NCBI RefSeq assembly: GCF_003019035.1
Contig: NZ_CP027447.1
Length of the DNA: 64,000 nt
Source: Escherichia coli
Lineage (GTDB): Bacteria; Pseudomonadota; Gammaproteobacteria; Enterobacterales; Enterobacteriaceae
Strand: one strand, 5' to 3'
This document shows positions 6,154 to 7,388 of the stretch, in pieces. Position 1 is the stretch's first letter. The number at the start of each line of letters is the position of its first letter. The notes beneath the pieces were generated by a model. That model was not told the origin of the DNA. It was given only the letters and a program-made list of their open reading frames with translations, and made no database searches. A program made the translations under genes and the position numbers.

Positions 6154-7086
6154 ATGGATGCACCGAGTACCACACCGCATGATGCGGTATTTAAACAATT
6201 TTTAATGCATGCGGAAACGGCTCGCGACTTTCTGGATATTCATTTGCCAGCGGAGCTACGCGAACTGTGTGACCTCGACACGCTGCATCTTGAGTCGGGG
6301 AGTTTTATTGAGGAAAGCCTGAAAGGACACAGCACGGACGTACTCTATTCCGTGCAAATGCAGGGCAATCCCGGTTATTTGCATGTGGTGATTGAACATC
6401 AAAGCAAGCCGGATAAGAAAATGACCTTTCGCATGATGCGCTATGCCATTGCCGCCATGCACCGGCATCTGGAGGCGGATCACGATAAGCTGCCGCTGGT
6501 GGTGCCGATTCTGTTTTATCAGGGCGAGGCCACACCTTATCCGCTCTCAATGTGCTGGTTTGATATGTTTTACTCGCCGGAGCTGGCGCGACGCGTTTAC
6601 AACAACCCTTTCCCGCTGGTGGATATCACCATCACACCGGATGACGAAATCATGCAACATCGGCGGATTGCGATTCTCGAACTACTGCAAAAACATATTC
6701 GCCAGCGCGACTTAATGTTATTGCTGGAGCAACTGGTCACGCTGATTGACGAAGGGTACACTAGCGGAAGTCAGTTAGTTGCCATGCAAAACTATATGCT
6801 GCAACGCGGTCATACTGAACAAGCGGATTTGTTTTATGGTGTGCTGAGAGACAGGGAAACGGGAGGGGAGTCTATGATGACGCTGGCGCAGTGGTTTGAA
6901 GAGAGGGGAAGACAGGAGGAAAGGCAGGAGGTAAGACAGGAGGTAAGACAGGAGGTAATACAAGAGGTTAGACAGGAAGTAAGACAGGAATTCGCCCTGC
7001 GTTTTCTGAGTAAAGGGATGTCTCGGGAAGACGTTGCAGAGATGGCAAATTTACCTCTTGCTGAGGTTGATAAGCTGATTAGCTAA
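6154..7086 (+). CDS. rpnC: recombination-promoting nuclease RpnC (YhgA-like / transposase_31 family)
   Basis: 310-aa ORF MDAPSTTPHDAVFKQFLMHAETARDFLDIHLPAELREL...; N-terminal region with conserved acidic residues typical of Rpn/YhgA proteins; C-terminal tail with (RQEV)n repeats and ...FLSKGMSREDVAEMANLPLAEVDKLIS. Position between panD and panC matches yadD/rpnC in K-12. Confidence 0.85.
   Translation: MDAPSTTPHDAVFKQFLMHAETARDFLDIHLPAELRELCDLDTLHLESGSFIEESLKGHSTDVLYSVQMQGNPGYLHVVIEHQSKPDKKMTFRMMRYAIAAMHRHLEADHDKLPLVVPILFYQGEATPYPLSMCWFDMFYSPELARRVYNNPFPLVDITITPDDEIMQHRRIAILELLQKHIRQRDLMLLLEQLVTLIDEGYTSGSQLVAMQNYMLQRGHTEQADLFYGVLRDRETGGESMMTLAQWFEERGRQEERQEVRQEVRQEVIQEVRQEVRQEFALRFLSKGMSREDVAEMANLPLAEVDKLIS
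6874..7086 (+). CDS. candidate internally initiated small protein (RpnS-like C-terminal domain of RpnC, same frame)
   Basis: Strong SD gggagggg (6861..6868) lies 5-7 nt upstream of in-frame ATGATG (6874..6879) inside rpnC, giving a 70-aa product MMTLAQWFEERGRQEE...KLIS. Matches the intragenic-antitoxin arrangement reported for Rpn genes (established knowledge), not verified here. Confidence 0.45.
   Translation: MMTLAQWFEERGRQEERQEVRQEVRQEVIQEVRQEVRQEFALRFLSKGMSREDVAEMANLPLAEVDKLIS
6910..6993 (+). repeat. 7 tandem 12-bp units (consensus agacaggaggta) encoding (RQEV)n in the RpnC tail
   Basis: Read directly: aga cag gag gaa / agg cag gag gta / aga cag gag gta / aga cag gag gta / ata caa gag gtt / aga cag gaa gta / aga cag gaa ttc. 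Confidence 0.9.
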
Positions 7087-7154
7087 GTTATCTGCATTAT
7101 CAGTTATAGCCAGATAATTGTTATTGTTAACTGACCAGATAATCAAGGGAACAT

Positions 7155-7388
7155 ATGGAAATAAAGACACGGAGAGAAACCAGGCAGACGTTAGCGCAGT
7201 GGTTTGAAGAGAAGGGATTTCAGAAGGCGTATCAGGAGGCGTTTCAGAAGGGATATCAAGAGGAACTCCAGAAGGTAAGACAGGAATTCGCCCAGCGTTT
7301 TCTAAGTAAAGGGATGTCTCGGGAAGACGTTGCAGAGGTGACAACTTTACCTCTTACAGAGATTGATAAGCTAATTAACTCTAACTAA
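7155..7388 (+). CDS. free-standing small ORF paralogous to the RpnC C-terminal (RpnS-like) domain
   Basis: 77-aa ORF MEIKTRRETRQTLAQWFEEKGFQKAYQEAFQKGYQEELQKVRQEFAQRFLSKGMSREDVAEVTTLPLTEIDKLINSN; SD-like aaggga 5 nt upstream of ATG; about 90% nucleotide identity to the last ~110 nt of rpnC and to the segment around its internal start (gcgcagtggtttgaagaga). Confidence 0.55.
   Translation: MEIKTRRETRQTLAQWFEEKGFQKAYQEAFQKGYQEELQKVRQEFAQRFLSKGMSREDVAEVTTLPLTEIDKLINSN
7218..7289 (+). repeat. 6 degenerate 12-bp periodic units encoding FQKA-YQEA-FQKG-YQEE-LQKV-RQEF
   Basis: ttt cag aag gcg / tat cag gag gcg / ttt cag aag gga / tat caa gag gaa / ctc cag aag gta / aga cag gaa ttc; same 4-codon periodicity as the rpnC array but different sequence. 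Confidence 0.8.

Follow-up and report, generated by a model that had tools for sequence, protein, structure and literature searches.

The Escherichia coli rpnC locus and its free-standing downstream copy rpnC_Ss: helix-1 linker lengths of the copy vary independently of those of the nested rpnC_S

Rpn proteins of E. coli are DNA endonucleases that are toxic and SOS-inducing when overexpressed (PMC10400941). Work on K-12 rpnC and its paralogues described RpnC_L as a toxic PD-(D/E)XK DNA endonuclease; at the internal translation start (iTIS) of K-12 rpnC, a signal was found by initiation-site ribosome profiling, and the small protein RpnC_S was detected with an SPA tag (PMC10400941). RpnC_S inhibits the nuclease, binding via its long first helix, whose count of 4-amino-acid (4-aa) repeats sets partner specificity, such that one extra repeat in RpnC_S abolished inhibition of RpnC_LS (Zhong et al., PMC10400941). 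The same study (Zhong et al. 2023, PNAS 120:e2307382120, PMC10400941, Fig. 2I and SI Fig. S3C) named a downstream copy rpnC_Ss, placed it phylogenetically with RpnC_S, and noted variation in 4-aa repeats as well as loss of the copy, which is either deleted or fused to the N-terminal domain of rpn. A small gene of K-12, ypaA/rpnE_Ss, also yields a protein that was detected by SPA tagging; it clusters with RpnE_S rather than with RpnC_Ss and is thus of independent origin (Zhong et al., PMC10400941).

The window, which is the whole 64,000-nucleotide stretch of E. coli DNA analyzed here, very probably contains the published rpnC_LS/rpnC_Ss locus, working by the mechanism proposed below; this is our best explanation overall. 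A sequence-only reading of the DNA had considered the stand-alone second copy undescribed. Since Zhong et al. had already described it in 2023 under the name rpnC_Ss (PMC10400941), the sequence observation was correct but not new; the locus as a whole has been known since then, together with its nested antitoxin and the additional copy downstream. The rpnC_Ss of Zhong et al. is the same gene in the same place, present in some strains only, with 4-aa repeats and with deletion and fusion events, and nothing categorical distinguishes it from the gene in the window. Added here are the frequency of the gene among genomes, the corresponding loci of E. marmotae and of a cryptic clade, the intactness of the open reading frame (ORF), the statistics of linker pairs, and the deletion-fusion chimeras.

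The gene order panD-rpnC-panC is the same as in K-12, and the parent gene, its nested start, and its neighbors lie as follows:

5500-5880, - strand: panD, neighbor of rpnC
6154..7086, + strand: rpnC (RpnC_L), 310 aa, Rpn-family PD-(D/E)XK nuclease/toxin (ORF list, TIGR01784, K-12 synteny)
6172..6774, + strand: nuclease domain of RpnC_L, residues 7-207 (Pfam Transposase_31 / YhgA-like)
6861..6868, + strand: GGGAGGGG, Shine-Dalgarno sequence (SD) of the iTIS (sequence reading; identical in K-12)
6874..7086, + strand: nested rpnC_S, intragenic antitoxin of 70 aa from M241, in frame with rpnC (role from PMC10400941)
7484-8335, - strand: panC, neighbor on the other side of the rpnC locus

The coordinates given beforehand for rpnC (6154-7086), the SD (6861-6868), the ATGATG (6874), and the downstream ORF (7155-7388) were all correct, and so was the proposal that 6154..7086 encodes an Rpn-family protein: in a Pfam scan, RpnC residues 7-207 matched PF04754 over model positions 1-201 of 203 (E 9.1e-87), and the score against the Rpn-family model TIGR01784 was 272.4 bits, with a cutoff of 52.1. 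The protein (RefSeq WP_000339917.1) is identical to K-12 RpnC at 279 of 310 residues (90%), residues 1-250 being almost identical, and its nuclease core has a pN/pS of 0.06 among 16 alleles. As judged from sequence and gene order, the large ORF is the ortholog of K-12 rpnC/yadD in the YhgA-like (PF04754) family. A PADLOC search returned no model matching RpnC.

The internal ATG lies 720 nt from the rpnC ATG and is in frame with it because this distance equals 240 codons; 70 residues remain. It belongs to an ATGATG at 6874-6879, with the second ATG at 6877, and the sequence MMTLAQWFEE at the nested start was kept in every locus sampled. The rpnC_S product matched C-terminal positions 218-273 of TIGR01784 (E 3e-9). 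The nested start with a strong SD, which had been noted from the letters alone, has a nucleotide context identical to that in K-12 rpnC, where RpnC_S was detected (PMC10400941). The window gene carries the K-12-type internal start for RpnC_S, and translation from it is predicted in the present strain.

Downstream of rpnC, the following features complete the locus:

7087..7154, + strand: spacer between rpnC and rpnC_Ss, 68 nt, of the same length in all two-gene loci
7110-7118 and 7135-7143, + strand: direct repeat CCAGATAAT in the spacer (sequence reading)
7145-7150, + strand: SD-like AAGGGA of rpnC_Ss, weak, with an AAGG core
7155..7388, + strand: rpnC_Ss, free-standing paralogue of RpnC_S, 77 aa, starting at an ATG of its own (BLASTP, TIGR01784; RefSeq WP_096986651.1)
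7449..7479, - strand: terminator hairpin of panC, which bounds the locus on the right (terminator scan)

The suggestion that the 77-codon ORF is a diverged copy of the RpnC tail, to be checked by aligning it with RpnC residues ~230..310, was borne out. In BLASTP, the product shared 61% identity with RpnC residues 235-310 (E 1e-25), and at the nucleotide level rpnC_Ss agrees with the rpnC tail at 95 positions (90.5%) over the last 105 nt; this similarity is far above chance and extends from just after the iTIS to about 14 nt beyond the stop. RpnC_Ss matched C-terminal positions 213-273 of TIGR01784 (E 2.1e-8), and its 34 bits lie below the whole-protein cutoff of that model because it is a fragment, as expected. 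A Pfam scan of the 77-aa protein gave no match at E <= 1e-3, DUF4351 (PF14261) included, so membership rests on TIGR01784 and the direct alignment. DUF4351 annotates separate RpnS genes "in some species" (Zhong et al., PMC10400941) and is, given this limited scope, not a required feature of rpnC_Ss. Related Ss alleles and RpnC tails have weak precomputed matches to PF27070 (HTH_Rpn_C). A PADLOC match of the small ORF to RmrA (E 7e-5, 19.6 bits) was taken as generic helix-turn-helix (HTH) similarity.

By sequence, rpnC_Ss thus duplicates part of the S-coding region; it begins at a separate ATG, behind a modest SD, and has acquired an N terminus of 11 residues, MEIKTRRETRQ, that is new. We also considered whether the spacer and this extension (7087-7186) might be a diverged copy of rpnC codons ~230-240; local alignment to rpnC scored 17, against a shuffle mean of 17.1, with 163 of 300 shuffles at least as good, and the idea was dropped. 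The protein probably has a three-helix RpnS-type fold. An AF2 model (pLDDT 74.9) comprises three helices, at residues 6-51, 56-63, and 67-76, and Foldseek aligned it to RpnA-S of 7TH0 with an rmsd of 0.8 Å over 37 columns and a target-normalized TM of 0.76 (prob 0.80), a match that is not significant (E 2.3) and ranks 23 among generic HTH domains. A PDB sequence search with RpnC_Ss did not retrieve RpnA-S, and its best match was a designed "CAP repeat" protein.

Scans found no terminator in the 68-nt spacer, no predicted promoter on the + strand upstream of 7155, and no significant RNA structure in the spacer (z = 0.43). As there is no terminator between the genes, rpnC_Ss is probably cotranscribed with rpnC/rpnC_S. 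The one-gene and two-gene states share the panC terminator hairpin, whose sequence is also found, conserved, behind rpnC in K-12, O157, and L018. The shared orientation and the lack of a terminator would suit a gene that supplies a fully cognate second antitoxin, either raising antitoxin dosage or uncoupling it from translation of the toxin. The same domain is present, with the TLAQWFEE and KGMSREDVAE blocks conserved, and the analogous K-12 protein YpaA/RpnE_Ss is synthesized (PMC10400941). The repeats and linker lengths of the first helix argue against such a role, which we regard as rather doubtful. The repeats concerned are these:

6909..6989, + strand: 12-nt tandem array, 6.8 copies, consensus AAGACAGGAGGT (TRF score 120)
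7210..7263, + strand: degenerate 12/24-nt repeats (TRF: 7210-7258, period 12, 4.1 copies; 7218-7263, period 24)

The first array encodes the (V/I)RQE 4-aa repeats of helix 1 in RpnC_S. They start about 11 residues after M241, within the 8 to 20 residues after the Met at which hypervariable 4-aa repeats characterize the family. The second encodes FQK(A/G)YQE(A/E)-type 4-aa repeats of helix 1 in RpnC_Ss. The S linker has between 15 and 43 aa, depending on the strain, and the Ss linker between 11 and 31 aa, depending on the allele, with a total Ss length of 54 to 86 aa. In the window, the linker of S (35 aa) exceeds that of Ss (31 aa), so that helix 1 of Ss is one repeat (4 aa) shorter; it is also built of different repeats, and a mismatch of one repeat was enough to abolish RpnC_S activity (PMC10400941). 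Among 17 distinct pairs, S and Ss linkers were equal in only one, where permutation gives an expectation of 1.1; the two lengths are independent and match at the level of chance, which argues against selection for matching but is not proof that the proteins do not interact. A first sample, with 0 of 12 pairs equal, had suggested that the lengths avoid each other, an idea abandoned with the larger number of pairs. No S linker differs in length from that of the most frequent Ss class (…VRLAQRLL) by a multiple of 4, and one identical RpnC (WP_000339917.1) is paired with a 77-aa Ss in the window and a 67-aa Ss in ST131.

Because helix 1 of RpnC_Ss is one repeat shorter and repeat matching is the published rule, we consider it more likely that RpnC_Ss is noncognate to RpnC_L, or pairs with it weakly, than that it serves as a redundant antitoxin. 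The RpnC_Ss of the window may not neutralize its neighbor, and we would predict that it fails to do so unless the repeat numbers are equalized. A stronger form of this proposal holds that RpnC_Ss is deliberately noncognate and has escaped the coevolution imposed by nesting, serving either as an antitoxin or decoy for another partner or as a prebuilt alternative tail; we put this forward as a speculation that is unlikely to be right in full. If it were noncognate in this sense, the partner could be, for example, an Rpn brought in by a plasmid or phage, or a phage factor targeting RpnS.

The sequence-only reading had given the K-12 rpnC-panC spacer as about 73 bp and had suggested that the downstream ORF may be strain-specific. 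The K-12 spacer does measure 73 bp and lacks a second ORF, and the gene is strain-variable: of the 5,426 complete E. coli genomes queried with the downstream region alone, at least 1,544 (~28%) had the two-gene arrangement. A whole-locus search gave 1,911 genomes, an overcount because O157-type one-gene loci also pass 80% coverage, and the downstream-only figure is the better estimate. The 77-aa allele WP_096986651.1 is rare, with identity of >=99% over 7087-7483 in only 1 of the 5,426 complete genomes. The arrangement panD-rpnC-68 nt-Ss-panC also occurs in E. marmotae and in Escherichia sp. E4930, of a cryptic Escherichia clade.

Since about 72% of complete E. coli genomes are without rpnC_Ss, which is readily deleted, the gene might be without function, left over from a partial tandem duplication and kept only by its shortness and by repeated gene conversion from rpnC. 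RefSeq labels it a partial pseudogene in some genomes, and mosaic alleles suggest conversion. Its C-terminal 24 codons have a pN/pS of 0.83 within E. coli (6 alleles only), which is compatible with relaxed constraint; between species the values for this part are 0.17-0.66, with one pair at 2.8, on a handful of substitutions and with gene conversion with rpnC likely. We nevertheless consider a remnant improbable. Disruption of the 77-codon ORF in relatives, named in advance as an outcome that would speak against a functional copy, was looked for, and the ORF was unbroken in every sampled allele, comprising all 17 distinct S/Ss pairs, L023/L024, and ~63 clusters of proteins starting with MEIK. 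The same ATG was shared by every allele examined, including two that RefSeq calls "partial," and indels were all in frame, even one of 6 nt that is no repeat unit. The gene and its 68-nt spacer are kept in E. marmotae and the cryptic clade, and rpnC offers no template for patching the unique N-terminal extension; yet between species the Ss N terminus shows 2 differences in 63 positions (pN/pS 0.06-0.24), versus 10 in 68 for the adjacent spacer. The copy is thus old, being common to E. marmotae, and has been kept intact, yet it is dispensable in most strains.

Two stretches of high identity connect rpnC and rpnC_Ss and bear on how the copy might be used:

6879..6903, + strand: homology box 1 (TLAQWFEE), 23/25 identical to 7187-7211 (local alignment)
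6979..7083, + strand: homology box 2 (end of helix 1 and HTH-like helices 2-3), 90.5% identical to 7275-7379

Box 1 is the upstream limit of detectable duplication and a crossover site of full-tail fusions, and box 2 is a second crossover site. Recombination between the two copies of a box would delete the interval and leave an RpnC whose tail is of the Ss type, so that the nested antitoxin would be new as well. Chimeras of two kinds were found: fusions at box 1 of the MMTLAQWFEE+KGFQKG... type in P0034, P0068, and P0069, and a box 2 fusion in L018, in which the S-type sequence switches to Ss type inside KGMSREDVAE. In O157/O55 and L018, rpnC continues into the flank that lies downstream of Ss, and the mosaic Ss alleles L004, L010, and L012 carry S-type VRQE repeats or S-type C termini. 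Zhong et al. mention fusion as well (PMC10400941). These findings are what would be expected if rpnC_Ss were selected as a stored alternative tail, with recombination at a box respecifying the toxin-antitoxin pair in one step under phage pressure, a possibility that we entertain only tentatively. In all chimeras examined (L018, P0034, P0068, and P0069), panC lies directly next to rpnC and the donor is lost, so the RpnC chimeras with Ss-type tails are deletion fusions and the switch would be one-shot. Such exchange could also be a by-product of direct repeats rather than a selected function, and no recombinase site or inverted repeat was evident at the locus. If the alternative-tail branch of the noncognate proposal were true, a single recombination at either box would change the specificity of the toxin and its nested antitoxin together. 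In the comparison across strains, the specificity-determining repeat number of rpnC_Ss drifts independently of the adjacent toxin.

Among known systems, ypaA/rpnE_Ss follows its parent, rpnE, in the same manner, as a separate small gene of the RpnS type immediately downstream; K-12 carries it but has no rpnC_Ss. RpnA_L/RpnA_S (7TH0) resembles rpnC as a PD-(D/E)XK nuclease with a nested iTIS antitoxin, and RpnA_S has a three-helix fold with a long dimerizing first helix. RpnA_S exists as a nested gene only, which enforces coevolution of toxin and antitoxin, whereas the free-standing Ss is freed from this coupling, consistent with a repeat number that is uncorrelated with that of its neighbor. 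In rhs and cdiA loci, part of the variable 3' end of the toxin gene is duplicated downstream and can recombine with the main gene via a conserved box to give a new C terminus; there, the variable tip is the toxin, and it is accompanied by an immunity gene. In rpnC, unlike in Rhs/CDI systems, the variable part is the antitoxin/oligomerization domain, the copy has its own start and is probably expressed, and the exchanges observed are deletions that consume the copy.

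Our results identify this locus as the published rpnC_LS/rpnC_Ss arrangement (Zhong et al. 2023, PNAS; PMC10400941). A sequence-only reading had recognized its parts correctly and was wrong in its central claim, that a stand-alone copy of the RpnC tail was undescribed, because Zhong et al. had already reported this extra downstream copy, named it rpnC_Ss (here Ss), and found that it clusters with RpnC_S, the nested tail that begins at an internal start in rpnC (PMC10400941). The region is 100% identical to the chromosome of E. coli strain SCU-301 and contains the following features.

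5500-5880, minus strand: panD
6154-7086, plus strand: rpnC, 310-aa ORF
6861-6868: Shine-Dalgarno sequence GGGAGGGG of the rpnC internal start
6874-6879: ATGATG of the internal start, exactly 240 codons past the rpnC ATG, with 70 residues remaining
6909-6989: 12-nt tandem array of 6.8 copies, encoding the (V/I)RQE repeats of RpnC
7145-7150: AAGGGA 5' of the rpnC_Ss ATG at 7155
7155-7388, plus strand: rpnC_Ss, 77-aa ORF
7484-8335, minus strand: panC

The Shine-Dalgarno sequence and in-frame ATGATG described within rpnC, and the 77-codon ORF with its SD-like AAGGGA beyond a 68-nt spacer from the rpnC stop, lie where they had been placed, and assignment of the large ORF to the Rpn family is borne out by Pfam Transposase_31 (YhgA-like; residues 7-207, E 9e-87) and NCBIfam TIGR01784, "Rpn family recombination-promoting nuclease" (272 bits; cutoff 52). 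K-12 RpnC is 90% identical to RpnC here; residues 1-250 are near-identical, the differences fall nearly all within the repeat block, and the nucleotides around the internal start are identical in the two genes. MG1655 makes SPA-tagged RpnC_S (Zhong et al. 2023; PMC10400941). The K-12 rpnC-panC spacer is 73 bp and carries no ORF. Elsewhere in the window, the t44 sRNA (49059-49145, plus strand; 83.5 bits) and the HtrA 5' UTR thermometer (40178-40223, plus strand; 77 bits) scored above the Rfam gathering score; both are common E. coli elements with no link to rpnC.

The Ss product is 61% identical to RpnC over residues 235-310 (E 1e-25), and the nucleotide identity estimated at about 90% is 95/105 (90.5%) across the last 105 nt, with 23/25 in the TLAQWFEE box. 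Similarity begins at 6879 in rpnC and 7187 in Ss, directly past the internal-start ATGs, and ends about 14 nt beyond the stop; the interval 7087-7186 (spacer plus the first 11 Ss codons) has no significant similarity to rpnC. The spacer between the genes is unstructured as RNA, and since neither a terminator nor a plus-strand promoter is predicted there, Ss would most simply be cotranscribed with rpnC/rpnC_S. The spacer contains the direct repeat CCAGATAAT twice (7110-7118 and 7135-7143), and E. marmotae and Escherichia sp. E4930 keep both copies; the repeat may be bound by a protein or be left over from the junction of the duplication.

Whether the Ss ORF is disrupted or neutral in relatives had been raised in the sequence-only reading. 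Disruption was not seen: the ORF, starting M(E/D)IKTRRET..., is intact in all 17 distinct S/Ss pairs (nested and free-standing copies of one locus) and in two further sampled loci, L023 and L024, and its length changes are all in frame, including one of 6 nt, which is no repeat unit. When E. coli is compared with E. marmotae, the N-terminal part found only in Ss differs at 2/63 nt (pN/pS, 0.06-0.24) and the adjacent spacer at 10/68. Together, these observations are evidence that Ss may be maintained. The C-terminal 24 codons may be under weaker constraint, their pN/pS being 0.83 within E. coli (six alleles) and 0.17-0.66 between species, with one outlier; the counts are low, and gene conversion with rpnC is likely. 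For comparison, the values are 0.37 in the nested S tail and 0.04-0.07 in the nuclease core. In L007 (656-1884; E. coli MRSN346647), RpnC_L has an internal stop just 5' of the internal start, and in L022, L034, and L044 its ORF is truncated or split, yet all four loci keep the nested S ORF and/or the Ss ORF intact; this looks like loss of the toxin with retention of antitoxin-type genes.

Of 5,426 complete E. coli genomes, 1,544 (~28%) have a match covering at least 80% of segment 7087-7483; the figure of 1,911 from a whole-locus query is an overcount, because O157-type one-gene loci also reach 80% coverage. The 77-aa allele itself is rare (at least 99% identity in only 1/5,426). A protein search returned 175 clusters, mostly of 57-86 aa; their sources are E. 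coli, E. marmotae, and cryptic lineages of Escherichia. E. marmotae and Escherichia sp. E4930 share the order panD-rpnC-68 nt-Ss-panC, so the arrangement is either old or has spread through the genus. RefSeq gives the gene three product names, labeling it variously "hypothetical protein," "RpnC/YadD family protein," or a partial "transposase"/"hypothetical" pseudogene ("transposase" in ATCC 25922); the ORFs called partial pseudogenes were intact on inspection, as in loci L003 (1669-1878) and L012 (1669-1866), called incomplete ("missing N-terminus") though the MEIKTRRET-start ORF is whole in both.

In one-gene loci (K-12, O157/O55, and L018), the rpnC stop runs directly into the window sequence 3' of Ss. 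Chimeric tails switch from S type to Ss type within the KGMSREDVAE box (L018) or at the TLAQWFEE box (protein clusters P0034, P0068, and P0069), and panC follows all of them directly, so they are deletion fusions that use up the Ss copy. Mosaic Ss alleles (L004, L010, and L012) suggest gene conversion as well; this picture fits the "fusion" remark of Zhong et al. In L015 (1782-2479; strain AMSCJX03), an IS1B lies between rpnC and panC, where Ss sits in other strains. In O55:H7 (L013, ~1806-2005) and O157:H7 (L014, ~1791-1997), an extra ~200 bp separates panC from its terminator hairpin; this segment is absent from the window and K-12, and an Rfam search of it gave no family match.

Toxicity, SOS induction, and DNA cleavage by RpnL are all blocked by RpnS proteins; RpnA_S forms dimers and folds as a three-helix bundle in which the first helix is long (PMC10400941). 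In the AlphaFold2 model of Ss (pLDDT 75), one long helix (6-51) is followed by two short helices (56-63 and 67-76). The model superposes on the RpnA-S crystal structure 7TH0 at 0.8 Å across 37 columns (target-normalized TM, 0.76); at a Foldseek E value of 2.3 the match lacks significance, and generic HTH domains reach similar scores. The model is consistent with the RpnS fold, short of proof.

Specificity of RpnS proteins is set by the number of 4-aa repeats in the first helix: RpnC_S with one extra repeat does not counteract RpnC_LS, and equal repeat numbers restore inhibition (PMC10400941). Repeat variation also occurs in RpnSs proteins, and synthesis of the K-12 analogue of rpnC_Ss, ypaA/rpnE_Ss, has been demonstrated (PMC10400941). 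No functional test of rpnC_Ss was reported in that study, and our literature search found no follow-up work on it. Counted from WFEE to SKGM, the helix-1 linker of RpnC_L/S in the window has 35 aa and that of Ss 31 aa; the Ss repeats are FQK(A/G)/YQE(A/E), not VRQE. S and Ss linker lengths are equal in 1 of 17 distinct pairs (1.1 expected by permutation), and for the commonest Ss class (...VRLAQRLL) the difference in linker length from every S linker is not divisible by four. The same RpnC protein (WP_000339917.1) accompanies an Ss of 77 aa in the window and, in an ST131 strain (L009, 1669-1872), an Ss of 67 aa with another repeat type, so rpnC and Ss evolve at different tempos. Free-standing Ss, in contrast to nested S, is thus under no constraint to match the toxin. 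The comparative data thereby give a concrete prediction for Ss function: under the published one-repeat rule, Ss would be noncognate by repeat number and would cross-inhibit RpnC_L poorly.
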